In this document: positions 2,191 through 63,361 of the stretch, in pieces | How the letters are laid out: each line of letters opens with the position of its first letter | Position numbering within the stretch: position 1 is the stretch's first letter | DNA from: Escherichia coli | GTDB taxonomy: Bacteria > Pseudomonadota > Gammaproteobacteria > Enterobacterales > Enterobacteriaceae | Direction: 5' to 3' (one strand) | NCBI RefSeq assembly: GCF_024223415.1 | Contig: NZ_CP100504.1 | Length of the DNA stretch: 63,428 nucleotides | Position numbers and translations under genes: made by a program | The notes under the pieces: generated by a model | Database searches by the model: none | Told to the model about the DNA's origin: nothing | The model's input: the letters and a program-made list of their open reading frames with translations, nothing else

Positions 2191-2479
2191 AATAGAATGG
2201 CGACCAGGTGCGATTGAGGATATAACGGCGTTGTTTGAATATCTGGCCGAGAATGCATCTCTTTGGGATGCAAGGAACGTGACAGAGCGTCTGATCACTG
2301 CAACCGATCGTCTGGCAGATTACCCCAGGCTGTATGAAACAGATGAACGCTATGGCGAAGGGGTTCGCCGTATTAGCTTACTTGGGCAGCATGTACTTTA
2401 TGAAGTGAATGATAAGGCCCGTCGTGTCAATATCCTGGCGGTTGTAGGCCAGCGTCAGAATCCCCGATTCATTCTTTGA
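2180..2479 (+). CDS. ParE/RelE-family toxin (plasmid stabilisation)
   Basis: 99-aa ORF with a ParE/RelE-like sequence pattern, translationally coupled to the upstream small ORF. Confidence 0.7.
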   Translation: MSYEIEWRPGAIEDITALFEYLAENASLWDARNVTERLITATDRLADYPRLYETDERYGEGVRRISLLGQHVLYEVNDKARRVNILAVVGQRQNPRFIL

Positions 2480-2626
2480 GTGCCCGGCTTGATGCGGGCT
2501 TACCAGGAATCACGGTTTGGGAGCCGCCTGGAGAAATGAAATTTTCCCATGCTAAGAGTATTGAGTTGAACTAGTAGAATTGACAATTCAAAAACTGAGA
2601 ACATGAAGAAACCCTATACGTCTGTC

Positions 2627-23439: not shown

Positions 23440-23949
23440 TTAATTGTTCTGCACGCTGTTAATTTCCGGAAGTGATTTCTTCGTGACCGGAATCCGGATA
23501 CCTTTACTGATTTTTATCCCGGTATAAATCCGGTAAACCTCTGATGCGTAGGCAAGACGTCTCTGGTTCTGGCGTTCGGTCTTCCTGAATCCGGCATTGT
23601 ATGCACCAACGGCCTCCCAGGAGACGCCCCATTTTTTAAAGGCTATTGCCAGATAATAAGCACCGGTATAAATGTTCATGCAGGGATCTGTTGTCAGATG
23701 TTCCGGCTTAATTCCGTAGCGGGCCAGTTCGTTAAAATGCTGGGAATCTACCTGCATCAGTCCGCTGCCATATCCCGTTACCGGATTAATACCGATGGCA
23801 TTAACCCGGTAACGGGATTCTTTCCATGATATTGCTCTCAGTAAATCAGGATCTATTTTGTAATCCCGGCCTGCAAGATCAAAGCAATCAGTGGCATGGC
23901 AGATCTCATTTATAAACATCAGGCAGATGGCTAACATCCATTTTTTCAT
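23440..23949 (-). CDS. lytic transglycosylase-like protein (orf169 / gene X), SLT domain
   Basis: 169 aa from [12 protein letters not shown] with RBS gaggtgg; signal peptide; directly adjacent to oriT. Confidence 0.8.
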
Positions 23950-24364
23950 TTTTCCACCTCTGGTGACTTTATCCGTAAATAATTTAACCCACTCCACAAA
24001 AAGGCTCAACAGGTTGGTGGTTCTCACCACCAAAAGCACCACACCCCACGCAAAAACAAGTTTTTGCTGATTTACGTTTTAAATCATGTAATTAACAAAT
24101 GCTATTTATATTTAATTATTCTGAATTATTAAATAGAGAGTCGTTGGCGATCCTGTTACGACCCTATAGCGACCCTTATTAGGATCAGTACTGACAATTT
24201 TCATGAAAAACATTGATATATATTAGGGGCACCCCTAGCGCCGGATCGCATTTTTTTATAGGATAATCCTAGAGGCGCTACTAGGAGTGTCTTTCTTACT
24301 TGTAAACACTATATTCATATTTATACTGAAAAGTTCATTGCTTAATGATGAAAGGTTTTATTTT
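23950..24364. other. oriT (origin of transfer) with F-type nic site
   Basis: Minus strand reads gcaaaaacttgtttttgcgtggggtgt/ggtgcttttggtggtgagaaccacc, matching the F oriT nick region; nick falls between 24039 and 24040 on the minus strand; AT-rich region upstream of traM. Confidence 0.8.
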
Positions 24365-24748
24365 ATGGCCAGAGTAATTTTGTATATCAGTAATGATGTC
24401 TATGATAAAGTAAATGCGATAGTTGAACAGCGTCGTCAGGAGGGGGCAAGAGATAAAGATATAAGCCTTTCAGGAACTGCTTCAATGCTTCTTGAACTGG
24501 GGCTTCGCGTATATGAGGCTCAGATGGAGCGTAAAGAGTCTGCATTTAATCAGACTGAGTTTAATAAATTACTTCTTGAATGTGTTGTAAAAACACAGTC
24601 ATCAGTAGCGAAAATTTTGGGTATTGAGTCTCTAAGTCCCCATGTCTCCGGGAATCCAAAGTTTGAATATGCCAATATGGTTGAAGATATTCGTGAGAAG
24701 GTGTCATCTGAGATGGAACGATTTTTTCCAAAAAATGATGACGAATAA
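24365..24748 (+). CDS. traM: relaxosome protein TraM
   Basis: 127 aa from MARVILYISNDVYDKVNAIVEQRRQEGARDKD...; matches TraM. Confidence 0.9.
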   Translation: MARVILYISNDVYDKVNAIVEQRRQEGARDKDISLSGTASMLLELGLRVYEAQMERKESAFNQTEFNKLLLECVVKTQSSVAKILGIESLSPHVSGNPKFEYANMVEDIREKVSSEMERFFPKNDDE

Positions 24749-24809
24749 AAAAGAATTAAAAGTTGATTTACTTCAAATAACAGAGTTTTGATCTGGTTCA
24801 ATTTGATGA

Positions 24810-24910
24810 CAATTAACCACATAAAGGTTATATTAATTATGTGGTTAATGCCACGTTAAAAATTTAGTTTGAATCGCCAATGCAGGGAGTAGCACCTCCC
24901 TGCATTGACT
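24810..24910 (-). ncRNA. finP: FinP antisense RNA (approximate)
   Basis: Two inverted repeats in the traJ leader (ttaaccacat...atgtggttaa; tgcagggag-tagcac-ctccctgca) just upstream of the traJ RBS. Confidence 0.5.
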
Positions 24911-24938
24911 GTCCATAGAATCCTTTGAGGAGGTTCCT

Positions 24939-25590
24939 ATGTGTGCAATGGATCGTAGAGAAAGAGCACTCATTCGTCAATTACATTTCCCTAACGACTT
25001 AAGAGAGAACATTTCATTATTGAAATATCCCGTATGTATACGTTTTGAAGACGGTTCTTTTATAGGAACAAATCACAGCTTCGAGCGATTTATTAAATTA
25101 TCATATTGTTCATGTGATGAATGGTTTGAGCATTTGACTTTAGAATCCAAGTTACAACTATCAAGATCTGAGATGGATTCATATTTTTCAACTTATGGTG
25201 TAAGTTATATTAATAATGTTTCAATTAGTGCTATGTCATGGAGCATGGTTATCGAAACACTCAATACAAATGAAGGTTGTTTTTTCGTCTGGCGATTTAT
25301 TGAGTCAAATGACAAAAATATTTCAACATCTTTGATTTCTAAATCTAATGATGGGTTGATATTTTTTCTGGGGAATATATAGATATTGAACCCTATCTTG
25401 TAGGGTTTAGCCATTATTATTCTGCAGCAGTGACAAAAATTAGTATATCTAAATCCAAGAAGAAAACGATGAATTTTTTCAAAATGAATGGGTTTAGTTC
25501 CAGAGATCACTGGTTGGATGAAATGCTCAGGTCTGAAAAAATACTATTTCTATATGATAGAGTAAAAGGAATATTAAAAAACAAGTGTTA
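24939..25590 (+). pseudogene. traJ: transfer activator TraJ, apparent frameshift
   Basis: 147-aa ORF stops at 25382, but the +2 frame is open from 25350 to 25590; the frame change coincides with a T6 run (25363-25368); combined length ~215 aa. Confidence 0.55.
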
Positions 25591-59968: not shown

Positions 59969-60212
59969 CGAAAAAGCAGCCTTCATTACTCCAGGGATTC
60001 AGAAGGCTGAATAATGCATGAGATTTGCTTTTTTTAATATCCGGTCGGGCAGTATGACCGGACAGTTCTGAGTAGCACAGAGTTTTTTCCGTATTAAGTC
60101 GTGATTTTATATTTTGTGATTAATTTCGCAAAATAAGGTGTTATTCAGTGTGTGCTGCGATATTCAGGATTACCTGAAATACAGGTGCCATTTATCTGAT
60201 ATGGAGAATAAT

Positions 60213-60674
60213 ATGAGGAAATATATTCCACTGGTATTATTTATCTTTTCATGGCCGGTATTGTGTGCAGATATTCATGGACGGGTTGTTCGTGTACTGG
60301 ACGGTGATACCATCGAGGTCATGGACTCACGGAAGGCAGTGCGGATCAGGCTGGTAAATATTGATGCACCGGAAAAGAAACAGGATTATGGCCGGTGGTC
60401 AACGGACATGATGAAATCACTGGTTGCAGGAAAAACGGTTACCGTCACATATTTTCAGCGAGATCGTTATGGTCGTATTCTCGGGCAGGTTTATGCACCA
60501 GACGGAATGAATGTTAATCAGTTTATGGTCCGGGCCGGGGCTGCCTGGGTATATGAGCAGTACAACACAGATCCCGTGCTGCCTGTCCTTCAGAACGAAG
60601 CCAGACAACAAAAACGTGGGCTCTGGTCAGATGCTGATCCGGTTCCCCCCTGGATATGGAGACACCGTAAATAA
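60213..60674 (+). CDS. nuc: secreted thermonuclease (staphylococcal nuclease homologue)
   Basis: 153 aa from MRKYIPLVLFIFSWPVLCA (signal peptide); SNase-like motifs (VLDGDTIEV, RLVNIDAPE); RBS ggaga. Confidence 0.75.
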   Translation: MRKYIPLVLFIFSWPVLCADIHGRVVRVLDGDTIEVMDSRKAVRIRLVNIDAPEKKQDYGRWSTDMMKSLVAGKTVTVTYFQRDRYGRILGQVYAPDGMNVNQFMVRAGAAWVYEQYNTDPVLPVLQNEARQQKRGLWSDADPVPPWIWRHRK

Positions 60675-60719: not shown

Positions 60720-60929
60720 ATGGCGAAAACAAAACAGGAATGGCTGTATCAGTTACGGCGATGTTCATCAGTCAATACGCTGGAAAAAATTATTCATAAA
60801 AACAGAGACAGTTTATTAAACAGTGAACGTGAATCATTTAATTCAGCAGCAGACCACCGGTTAGCGGAATTAATCACCGGAAAGTTATATGACAGGATAC
60901 CAAAAGAGATATGGAAATATGTAAGGTAA
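60720..60929 (+). CDS. small hypothetical protein
   Basis: 69-aa ORF 37 bp upstream of the DUF2726-like gene. Confidence 0.4.
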   Translation: MAKTKQEWLYQLRRCSSVNTLEKIIHKNRDSLLNSERESFNSAADHRLAELITGKLYDRIPKEIWKYVR

Positions 60930-60966: not shown

Positions 60967-61557
60967 ATGAAGTTGATTATTTTTATTCTCATTGTTCTGA
61001 TTATTGCAGCGTTACTTATCCGGATTATCCTCAGAAGTGTAAATCAGCATTCTCCTTTGCTGATGCAGTTACATGCGGCAGGTATACGGACCGGTGATGC
61101 AGAGCGAATACTGTCCGGCGGTGAATACTGGCAACGTCAGAAGACGCTGCTGACAGAAAGGGAAGTCAGTTTTATGAAAGGACTGTTCAGAATTGTGGAT
61201 ATGAAGCGGTGGTATCTGTGTCCGCAGGTACGGGTCGCGGATATCGTCCAGCTGAACGGGAATATCCGGCCACGATCACGCCAGTGGTGGCAGTTATTCA
61301 GGATGGTGTCTCAGTGGCATGTTGATGTGGTTATCGTTGAGCGGCGTTCGTTCAGTATTGTTGCAGCAGTAGAGCTGGATGATGCCAGCCATTTACGACC
61401 GGAACGCAGACGCCGGGATATTCTTCTGGAAGAGGTTCTGAGGCAGGCTGGTATTCCGTTGCTCAGAAGCCACGATGCCAGAAAACTGCTGCAGATGACC
61501 GGAGAATGGCTGAATACAACAGGGGCTGATCAGCAGTCCCCGGAACATCGTAGCTGA
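60967..61557 (+). CDS. membrane-anchored DUF2726-like protein (predicted nuclease-related fold)
   Basis: 196 aa with an N-terminal TM helix (MKLIIFILIVLIIAALLIRIIL) and acidic and basic residues spaced like a PD-(D/E)xK-type motif (HVDVVIVERR...VELDD); family call from memory. Confidence 0.55.
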   Translation: MKLIIFILIVLIIAALLIRIILRSVNQHSPLLMQLHAAGIRTGDAERILSGGEYWQRQKTLLTEREVSFMKGLFRIVDMKRWYLCPQVRVADIVQLNGNIRPRSRQWWQLFRMVSQWHVDVVIVERRSFSIVAAVELDDASHLRPERRRRDILLEEVLRQAGIPLLRSHDARKLLQMTGEWLNTTGADQQSPEHRS

Positions 61558-61640
61558 CGCCTTCGCGTTGCTCAGTTGTCCAACCCCGGAAACGGGAAAA
61601 AGCAAGTTTTCCCCGCTCCCGGCGTTTCCGTAATAAAAAA
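61554..61640. repeat. ~80-bp conserved intergenic motif, copy B
   Basis: ctgacgccttcgcgttgctcagttgtccaaccccgg ... ctcccggcgtttccgtaataaaaaacgggaaatgg; begins at the DUF2726-like stop codon. Confidence 0.8.
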
Positions 61641-61711
61641 CGGGAAATGGTGGTCACAGAATAAATTCCGGAACTACCTGTACCCAAACTTTATATAATA
61701 AAGGTGAATAT

Positions 61712-62161
61712 ATGGAATATGATGATGTATCAGAATTGATGATTAAGCGTGAACACAATATTCTTATTGTTGGGAATTCTGCCTCCCACATTGATAAGTT
61801 TTTTAAGGAGTATTCTATACCAAGTTCTAAATATTATGATTTCACTCAGATTAACAGTGATTCAGATGTAGAGAGAAATGAGAATGCTGTCTCTTTTATC
61901 AGGGATGCAATGAATAGTGAAGAGCTCACAATCATTTTTAATTGCGTTGGGTGGCCTGATTTAGGTGGTGGATCAGCAGTATCACTGTTTGCAATGATGG
62001 CCAGAAAATTTGGTAAACAACTTATTGTCGCTGTAAGTGAAAAGTATGCCATCAAATTAAAAGACAACTTTGATATTATTGGGATGTTGTCATATGGTAA
62101 AGAAAATTTTATTGCCATGAGTCATACGAAAAGCGAGTTAACTGGAGGGAAACGTCGGTAA
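61712..62161 (+). CDS. hypothetical protein with a Gly-rich (GGGS) loop
   Basis: 149-aa ORF with RBS aaaggtga; pattern of hydrophobic strands (ILIVGN, TIIFNCVGWPDLGGGSAVS, QLIVAV) suggests a Rossmann-like fold; AT-rich. Confidence 0.5.
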   Translation: MEYDDVSELMIKREHNILIVGNSASHIDKFFKEYSIPSSKYYDFTQINSDSDVERNENAVSFIRDAMNSEELTIIFNCVGWPDLGGGSAVSLFAMMARKFGKQLIVAVSEKYAIKLKDNFDIIGMLSYGKENFIAMSHTKSELTGGKRR

Positions 62162-62206: not shown

Positions 62207-62250
62207 GTGACGCCTTCGTGCTTCGGTAGTAAAAAACGGGAAATGAAGGT
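62207..62250. repeat. partial copy C of the conserved intergenic motif
   Basis: tgacgccttcgtgcttcggtagtaaaaaacgggaaatgaagg shares both ends with copy B but lacks the central part; lies upstream of srnB. Confidence 0.6.
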
Positions 62251-62375
62251 AATAGTCAGCAACAGGGAATGTGGTATTATCGCGGCGGGTGTCTGAGCCT
62301 TTCTGGTTCAGGCAAGACGCAGGTACCAGAAATGCGAAGACCCCACTTGTTAATCCATTAACTCGTGAGGTCTGC

Positions 62376-62582
62376 ATGAAGTACTTGAACACTACTGATT
62401 GTAGCCTCTTCCTTGCAGAGAGGTCAAAGTTTATGACGAAATATGCCCTTATCGGGTTGCTCGCCGTGTGCGCCACGGTGTTGTGTTTTTCACTGATATT
62501 CAGGGAACGGTTATGTGAACTGAATATTCACAGGGGAAATACAGTGGTGCAGGTAACTCTGGCCTACGAAGCACGGAAGTAA
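62376..62582 (+). CDS. srnB: SrnB (Hok/Gef-family membrane toxin locus)
   Basis: 68-aa ORF MKYLNTTDCSLFLAERSKFMTKYALIGLLAVCATVLCFSLIFRERLCELNIHRGNTVVQVTLAYEARK; Hok-like core starts at MTKYAL; a GC-rich fold-back region follows. Confidence 0.8.
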   Translation: MKYLNTTDCSLFLAERSKFMTKYALIGLLAVCATVLCFSLIFRERLCELNIHRGNTVVQVTLAYEARK

Positions 62583-62865: not shown

Positions 62866-63126
62866 ATGTCGCAGATCGAAAATGCAGTAACTTCCTCACC
62901 GAAACGCATTTACAGAAAAGGTAATCCGTTAACCGGAGCCGAGAAACAACGTATATCTGTTTCCCGGAAAAAGGGGACACATAAAGCGATTAATGTTTTC
63001 ATCCAGAGTGAACTCAAAGATGATTTGACACAGCTTTGTAAAGATTCGGGCTTAACTCAAAAAGAAATGATAGAGCACTGGATTTTGAAAGAAAAAGCTG
63101 CGATGGATAATGCGAATAGAAGGTAA
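62866..63126 (+). CDS. repA2: replication regulator RepA2 (CopB)
   Basis: 86 aa starting MSQIENAVTSS..., CopB-like; sits upstream of the copA/tap/repA1 control region. Confidence 0.8.
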   Translation: MSQIENAVTSSPKRIYRKGNPLTGAEKQRISVSRKKGTHKAINVFIQSELKDDLTQLCKDSGLTQKEMIEHWILKEKAAMDNANRR

Positions 63127-63169: not shown

Positions 63170-63265
63170 CTGATCGTTTAAGGAATTTTGTGGCTGGCCA
63201 CGCCGTAAGGTGGCAGGGAACTGGTTCTGATGTGGATTTACAGGAGCCAGAAAAGTGAAAACCCC
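63170..63265 (-). ncRNA. copA: CopA antisense RNA (approximate)
   Basis: Stem-loop-rich region between repA2 and tap; placed by analogy with R1/R100 copy-number control; ends not determinable by eye. Confidence 0.4.
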
Positions 63266-63361
63266 GATAATCTTCAGCAAGTTTGGCGACTAAGAGAAGA
63301 TTAACGGGGCCATCTAAAAACCGTATAGCCAACAATTCAGCTATGCGGGGAGTATAGTTAT

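Follow-up and report, generated by a model that had tools for sequence, protein, structure and literature searches.

The region analysed here (the window) is a 63,428-nt stretch of an Escherichia coli contig (NZ_CP100504.1), and the replicon that hosts ORF149 is an IncF conjugative plasmid. At its right-hand end the genes follow in the order traI, traX, finO, SNase, Hha-like, yihA, ORF149, hok/sok, repA2/copB and the CopA RNA (Table 1). The hok/sok locus and CopA, which lie immediately 3′ of ORF149, are ordinary IncF backbone. A gene for a plasmid topoisomerase III (topB) is absent from the window plasmid.

Table 1. Features of the ORF149 locus and of related loci. Positions are those of the window unless another replicon is named.
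Feature	Position	Strand	Remarks
SNase-type thermonuclease gene	60138–60674		secreted
Hha-like gene	60720–60929		
yihA	60967–61557		DUF2726
Upstream flanking motif, long form	61555–61659	+	TGACGCCTTCG from the yihA stop codon; predicted stem-loops ~61584–61645; 34-nt repeat last
Shine–Dalgarno AAGGTG	61701–61706	+	5 nt before the ATG; read from the sequence; same Met start in homologues
ORF149 CDS	61712–62161	+	149 aa plus stop, ATG start; from the ORF list; annotated CDS in CP059926.1 and others
Walker A position, G21–D28	61772–61795	+	GNSASHID (ILIVGNSASHID); alignments A2 and A3, hhalign
Walker B position, T73–W81	61928–61954	+	TIIFNCVGW, against TLILDxVEF; alignments; modelled strand 73–77
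P82–S91, PDLGGGSAVS	61955–61984	+	loop of variable sequence plus start of a helix, following the Walker B strand; unconserved in alleles and relatives
Downstream flanking motif, short form	62208–62255	+	lacks the long hairpin; TGACGCCTTCG 62208–62218; 34-nt repeat 62222–62255
hok/sok type I toxin–antitoxin locus	62287–62582		sok Rfam match 62287–62443, 93.5 bits; hok end 62582
sok-promoter-like site	62398–62427	−	
repA2/copB	62866–63126		
CopA antisense RNA	63253–63344	−	upstream of IncFII repA; Rfam, 99.7 bits
Same stop-codon motif, other plasmids	L021 2881–2980; L025 1281–1380		
Type A alleles	window, L020, L022–L024		
Type B alleles	L021, L025		~54% aa identity to type A
Type C alleles	P0043, P0044, P0061		~60% aa identity to type A
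Truncated form	L004 (NZ_CP022227.3) ~2380–2560		equals window 61949 onward
IncX3 420-aa ATPase	L031 (NZ_MK033578.1) 23823–25085		
Relatives directly upstream of topB	P0083 (L009), P0087 (L010, L011), P0094 (L012–L014), IncX5 Serratia plasmid (L019)		
Relative upstream of topB	P0077 (L007)		106-nt gap
Relative with intervening ORF	P0082 (L008)		31-aa ORF between gene and topB
Relative with topB further downstream	P0092 (L015, L016)		topB two genes downstream
Relatives inside virB operons	P0076, P0096		between virB2 and virB3/4
Relative in an IncI-like pil operon	P0072		
Relative adjoining trbM			one relative

The initial annotation had described an AT-rich reading frame of 149 codons, bracketed by copies of an intergenic motif, and this much was borne out. 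The frame is present with exactly the sequence quoted; its GC content is 0.35 (0.32 at third codon positions), compared with 0.46 in the surrounding kilobase and 0.5–0.6 in the tra region; and the bracketing is accounted for by the two copies of TGACGCCTTCG and a pair of 34-nt repeats described below. ORF149 is a real protein-coding gene and no chance reading frame, since it bears a CDS annotation at the finO–hok locus of many IncF plasmids, is widely carried and shows dN/dS values of 0.25–0.56. Wherever it is annotated, across hundreds of plasmids, the label is ‘hypothetical protein’. A promoter scan found no sigma-70-like promoter directly 5′ of the gene, and a TATAAT at 61694–61699 was ruled out as its promoter on account of lying too near the ATG. 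The same scan, whose total was not above chance, returned a sigma-70-like match (TTGATA-17-TATGGT, 62070–62098, plus strand) within the 3′ part of ORF149 and facing hok.

Exact TGACGCCTTCG sites occur at 61555 and 62208 only. The 34-nt direct repeat has its copies at 61626–61659 and 62222–62255, which are 82% identical, and AAAAAACGGGAAATG gives three matches at two or fewer mismatches, against 0.2 expected, with exact occurrences at 61635 and 62231. In the window, the motif TGACGCCTTCG(CG) starts precisely at the TGA that ends yihA; in two other plasmids (L021 and L025) it starts in the same way at the TGA of the type B paralogue, and in each case a conserved hairpin comes next. The TGACGCCTTCG module is thus a 3′-end unit common to different genes, and it probably serves as a recombination substrate for the gain and loss of cassettes. 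Folding of the upstream motif gave a z-score of only −1.8, and an Rfam search of the flanks assigned the motif to no RNA family, the only matches being sok, CopA and a weak PK-repZ (26.2 bits, below the gathering score of 44). One plasmid without ORF149 (L002) carries a single, hybrid copy of the repeat, and another (L003) lacks both ORF149 and hok; on these grounds ORF149 is read as a cassette gained and lost through recombination between the repeats. We infer that the gene is dispensable and is swapped as a cassette between direct repeats.

An 801-bp query around ORF149 matched 4755 plasmids in PLSDB, the full region being covered in only 374 and the flanks alone in the rest. At the protein level, tblastn found ORF149 or a remnant of it in 799 PLSDB plasmids, 441 of them with a copy near full length. 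The gene or a remnant was likewise present in 615 of 5426 complete E. coli genomes, where 633 of the 637 places were plasmid-borne. The finO–hok locus holds at least three deep ORF149 lineages, which we call types A, B and C. Comparison of types A and B by the Nei–Gojobori method gave dS of 1.1–1.6 with dN/dS of 0.25–0.35, and among close alleles dN/dS was 0.26–0.56. ORF149 is thus under purifying, somewhat relaxed selection.

Recombination has occurred between these paralogues and alleles, as is evident from clean mosaics with differing crossover points: P0039 joins type B residues 1–75 to type A from residue 76 to the end, P0030 has type B residues 1–50 followed by type A, and P0035 is type A with a type C tail. 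In one plasmid (L020, NZ_CP128920.1), the interval from the SNase gene to hok contains two paralogues one after the other (1949–2938), with a frameshifted type B copy (1949–2348), then TGACGCCTTCG, then an intact type A copy (2501–2938). The window allele, at 149 aa, is 5–8 codons shorter than most alleles (154–157 aa). It ends (62146–62161) in GGKRR and a stop codon, as in CP059926.1, whereas most close alleles run on as GGKRRYRIKN; the early stop results from a nonsense change, and the tail in which it falls is poorly conserved and modelled with low confidence. The common truncated form retains only nucleotides 238–449 of the ORF and starts at an IS1 terminal inverted repeat. The numerous truncated copies seem to go back to a single IS1 event, in a plasmid lineage that has been successful.

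Direct searches with the ORF149 protein were uninformative as to family. There was no match in Pfam or among the PADLOC families, PHROGs gave a best E of 0.11, the best NCBIfam model (DNA polymerase III delta′, E=0.024) was a chance match, and word-indexed searches returned E. coli plasmid alleles only. Relatives emerged when a profile built from IncF alleles alone (A1) was run against a library of 1.84e9 representative proteins, which gave about 15 full-length matches with E from 9e-15 to about 5e-4, of 140–165 aa except for one of 281 aa with an N-terminal extension. Among the matches with an intact Walker A motif were P0072 (E=9e-15), P0076 (1e-10) and P0077 (8e-10). Comparison of A1 with a profile of intact relatives only (A4) by hhalign gave a probability of 99.5% (E=3.9e-22) over 128 columns. 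The sole PDB match of the IncF-only profile, TraI 381–569 (2l8b), was not significant (E=0.73), and no second family member was detected in the window when its six-frame ORFs were all searched with an HMM.

In most of the relatives the first strand leads into an intact Walker A motif, ILVxGxTGxGKS/T, and most have a Walker B-like hhhhD followed by xVEF. ORF149 is 25–30% identical to them and retains the NxLIVG strand, SKYYDF and ARKxGKxLIV. In alignments A2 and A3 it has the attributes by which we define the family: a length of 140–170 aa, the motifs NxL[IV]xG, SKY[YF]DF, ExT[IL]I[LF][DN]xV and ARKxGK[RQ]LIV, and residence on a conjugative plasmid. The relatives, which we refer to as the mini P-loop family, reach the gathering score of no Pfam or NCBIfam model. 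Intact members match many P-loop models in these collections through the P-loop only and far under the curated cut-offs, and their PADLOC matches are also through the P-loop only. We found nothing on ORF149 or on this family in the literature on IncI2, IncF and IncX plasmids or on pseudo-ATPases. The P-loop superfamily itself is of course known; the mini P-loop family is undescribed in Pfam, NCBIfam, PADLOC, PHROGs or the papers found.

Structure prediction is consistent with this assignment. AlphaFold2 modelled ORF149 with moderate confidence from the shallow alignment A1 (pLDDT 71.6, pTM 0.71), and the intact relative P0077 from the broader alignment A3 with pLDDT 92.5 and pTM 0.87; the order of secondary-structure elements is the same in both models. 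ORF149 is predicted to form a three-layer alpha/beta/alpha domain with a central parallel sheet, as expected of the P-loop superfamily, and it is homologous to bona fide P-loop proteins. Foldseek matches point to KaiC-like proteins, FlaH and RecA, and a profile search of the PDB matched Walker A and, separately, the stretch of ABC ATPases such as EcfA that runs from Walker B to the H-loop (E ~0.005). An ABC ATPase proper is not indicated, as about 45 residues separate the Walker positions and there is no LSGGQ-like motif; weak matches to PF00005, via the P-loop, came from 5 of 20 members. In structural terms the mini P-loop family amounts to a minimal ASCE (RecA/ABC-like) P-loop domain without signature motif or accessory subdomains.

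These results settle the remaining suggestions of the initial annotation, which had tentatively proposed a small nucleotide- or ligand-binding domain, such as one of SLOG, LOG or TIR-like fold. The hydrophobic segments that it took for strands do form strands in the AlphaFold2 model (residues 17–21, 73–77 and 103–109), and the nucleotide-binding-type alpha/beta three-layer fold stood up to the remote-homology and structural comparison that had been advised; the relatives so found are P-loop proteins (hhalign 99.5%) and not SLOG, LOG or TIR proteins, and the binding of a ligand has probably been lost with the Walker residues. PDLGGGSAVS, put forward as a glycine-rich binding loop, varies even between close alleles, which have GGGS, GTKS, GAKS, GRES, GEGS or NNES at this place. 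The family's true nucleotide-binding element is the Walker A P-loop after the first strand (ILVxGxTGxGKS). Judged by a Rossmann-like fold with a conserved PGGxGTxxE-type motif and a Pfam match, ORF149 is no SLOG/LOG (lysine-decarboxylase-like) protein; nor is it a TIR domain, judged by a flavodoxin-like fold with a conserved catalytic Glu and a Pfam or PADLOC match. A role in defence fared no better, with no PADLOC family matched and the neighbouring genes being those of plasmid maintenance and transfer.

ORF149 differs from its relatives at the catalytic positions. Of the Walker A pattern GxxGxGK[ST] only the first Gly survives, the two later Gly, the Lys and the Ser/Thr all being replaced. 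At Walker B, N77 takes the place of the Asp, and G80 that of the Glu three residues later. Neither GxxxxGK[ST] nor hhhhD with its acidic residue is therefore present in ORF149, and no allele at the IncF locus has GK[ST]. The replacements are fixed in the IncF lineages A, B and C, whose divergence has reached dS above 1, and the degenerate motifs G[ND]SAS and IIFNCxGWxDL are kept within the IncF clade. Because all lineages share and conserve the degenerate versions, loss of the Walker residues predates the split of the IncF lineages, and selection has continued since. With Walker A, the Walker B Asp and the Glu replaced, canonical NTP binding and hydrolysis by ORF149 are excluded on sequence grounds, and ORF149 has probably lost both activities.

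Other branches of the family are also degenerate. P0079 has GDEDSNKK at Walker A; P0082, which carries a 140-aa N-terminal extension, and P0090 lack GK[ST] and have Asn at Walker B; and the IncI2 protein YfdA (L017, 4971–5489) keeps GESGTGKS and has Asn at Walker B. Judging by these alignments, the Walker motifs have decayed independently in these other branches (in YfdA, at Walker B), which suggests that hydrolysis is not essential to the role of the mini P-loop family.

Every relative on a readable contig lies in a conjugative-transfer cluster. Many are directly 5′ of a plasmid topoisomerase III gene (Toprim plus Topoisom_bac), often with a 4-nt ATGA/GTGA overlap, and Hha or H-NS then follows (Table 1). 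By tblastn, the mini P-loop family occurs in 1003 PLSDB plasmids (IncX-like, IncI2 and IncF). The IncI2 copy lies between the T4CP gene and pilN, overlapping pilN, and is labelled ‘YfdA’ or mis-named ‘sigma-54-interacting regulator’. Some IncF plasmids have a copy between traU and trbC, labelled ‘ATP-binding protein’; a 150-aa ORF beside this copy was considered as a second family member and proved to be unrelated. The IncX-like neighbourhoods contain SNase, Hha/H-NS, DUF2726 and hok, which is the same gene set as in the finO–repA block of IncF. Identity is 53% between the SNases of IncF and IncX3 (L031, 25168–25662) and 57% between the Hha-like protein of IncF and the Hha of IncX5 (L019, 7959–8168). 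The IncF finO–repA block and the IncX SNase–ATPase–TopB–Hha/H-NS block appear to be of common origin, although IncF has no topB.

The nearest points of comparison are YfdA (WP_015387353.1) of the IncI2 plasmid pHN1122-1, QML17722.1 from the traU–trbC interval of the IncF plasmid pRHB19-C10_2, and WP_050886235.1, encoded upstream of topB on the IncX5 plasmid of Serratia. ORF149 resembles these proteins in size, in the order of its elements and in the motifs NxLVxG, SKY[YF]DF and ARKxGK[RQ]LIV. It differs in that most relatives keep Walker A, and most keep the Walker B Asp and the Glu of VEF, and in lying beyond finO next to hok, whereas the relatives are in transfer operons or beside topB. Set against the cores of RecA, KaiC, FlaH, DnaB and ABC proteins (T7 gp4, 1cr0; FlaH, 4yds; RadA, 8rxc; KaiC; EcfA, 4hlu), members of the mini P-loop family are short, at about 150 aa, and lack the oligomerisation and helical subdomains as well as LSGGQ. 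To the non-catalytic RecA-fold adaptors (Shu subunits, XRCC2 and other RAD51 paralogues, and Elp4/5/6) the likeness is one of analogy only, no specific sequence relationship having been found.

A further comparison is afforded by the IncX3 plasmid pHNYX644, in which HTU75_RS00155, a protein of 420 aa, occupies the slot SNase–[ATPase]–topB–hns that the mini P-loop gene fills elsewhere. Membership of the mini P-loop family was rejected, as this is a classical AAA ATPase (PF00004, E=1.5e-13) whose likeness to the family is limited to the 75 columns from Walker A to Walker B (hhalign 86%). The AAA gene in the IncX3 slot looks like a non-orthologous replacement, and the arrangement hints at a plasmid Topo III that works with an ATPase partner. 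In the published IncX3 deletion study the AAA gene upstream of topB was not among the deletions, hence that work is silent on its function (PMC11880322).

Taken together, it is very likely that ORF149 is a real gene encoding a dead P-loop homologue. What the protein now does is less certain. On balance we favour the reading that it is a selectively maintained pseudo-NTPase, acting non-catalytically as a binding or adaptor protein, although the adaptor mechanism taken by itself, which is drawn from analogy, is tentative. On this view ORF149 would be a non-catalytic subunit with a binding, adaptor or regulatory task, much like RecA-fold proteins of the Shu, XRCC2 and Elp4–6 type, and its partner would probably be of the sort that the ATP-competent relatives contact. 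To judge from where those relatives lie, the partner may come from the conjugative DNA-processing and transfer apparatus, a type IA topoisomerase (Topo III) being the first candidate, followed by the T4SS or coupling protein; as IncF has no plasmid topB, it would be the host Topo III or a Tra protein. Given that the window plasmid has neither topB nor an intact paralogue, the partner of ORF149 is a matter of conjecture. That same deficit counts against our preferred explanation, as do the absence of ORF149 from most IncF plasmids that share its flanks, the truncation of about half of the copies, the existence of frameshifted copies, a dN/dS (0.3–0.5) which is relaxed for a functional gene, and the no more than moderate confidence of the ORF149 model. 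The main rival, that ORF149 is a decaying remnant of an SNase–ATPase–TopB–Hha module which has lost topB and its catalytic site and is drifting towards loss, draws on similar observations: every catalytic motif is gone, the gene is missing from more than 90% of flank-sharing IncF plasmids, IS1 has cut short many copies, a frameshift has disrupted one tandem copy, dN/dS is above that usual for core genes, and identity to the relatives is 25–30% when that of the neighbouring SNase and Hha is 53–57%. However, the reading frame has stayed open and dN/dS lies near 0.3 between lineages with dS above 1, which implies purifying selection long after the P-loop was lost; the clade motifs G[ND]SAS and NCxGWxDL are conserved; and the common truncation represents one IS1 event rather than many independent losses. 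We consider simple decay unlikely.

Other readings have less to commend them. It would be a long shot that the mini P-loop family is an accessory ATPase of plasmid Topo III or of conjugative DNA processing, and the ORF149 lineage a dead derivative of it with a new role. That role could be to modulate host Topo III or to act as a dominant-negative inhibitor of competing IncX or IncI2 ATPases; were the dominant-negative version true, it would amount to a new kind of fertility inhibition. RecA/ABC-like ATPases build their active sites at subunit interfaces, and a dead subunit might on that account poison the oligomers of co-resident IncX, IncI2 or IncF relatives, or titrate their partner, so lowering the transfer of competitors in a manner akin to fertility inhibition. 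Other plasmid groups with E. coli hosts in common do carry intact members within their transfer operons, ORF149 adjoins the finO region, and its alleles are diverse and mosaic. Nevertheless, such interference is highly improbable, as dN/dS is below 1 with no sign of an arms race and 25–30% identity to the putative targets makes hetero-oligomers doubtful. There is a very slight chance that ORF149 has a non-canonical nucleotide site, for example in the NCxGWxDLG segment or around K102. The fold is retained, a new conserved motif stands where the gamma-phosphate or catalytic pocket would be, and IncI2 YfdA, with its Walker A and a Walker B Asn, raises the possibility that binding without hydrolysis is the family mode. 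In every P-loop NTPase, however, the P-loop Lys and Ser/Thr supply most of the phosphate contacts, and in ORF149 these have become Ile and Asp. The chance is next to negligible that ORF149 is a SLOG, LOG or TIR-type ligand-binding domain working through its GGGS loop, perhaps as a toxic or phage-defence effector. The alpha/beta three-layer fold and the position of this AT-rich cassette beside the hok toxin locus would suit that proposal, but the loop is unconserved, Pfam, NCBIfam and PADLOC lend no support, and the homologues are P-loop proteins in transfer operons and not in defence islands.

In E. coli, resistance and virulence genes are carried chiefly by IncF plasmids, whose backbones still include many genes annotated as ‘hypothetical’. 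ORF149 has moved from having no family to membership of a defined, previously undescribed mini P-loop family which is present on about 1000 PLSDB plasmids, is embedded in conjugative-transfer operons and is repeatedly coupled to plasmid topoisomerase III. If only a decaying remnant, ORF149 would still record the common ancestry of the IncF finO–repA and IncX SNase–ATPase–TopB–Hha/H-NS blocks. If the link between the ATPase and Topo III is functional, it would point to an unrecognised auxiliary step in the processing of conjugative DNA or in the establishment of plasmids, and ORF149 would be a natural dead variant, useful for separating binding from hydrolysis. The recurrent coupling of a mini-ATPase with Topo III thus gives plasmid biologists a testable lead.
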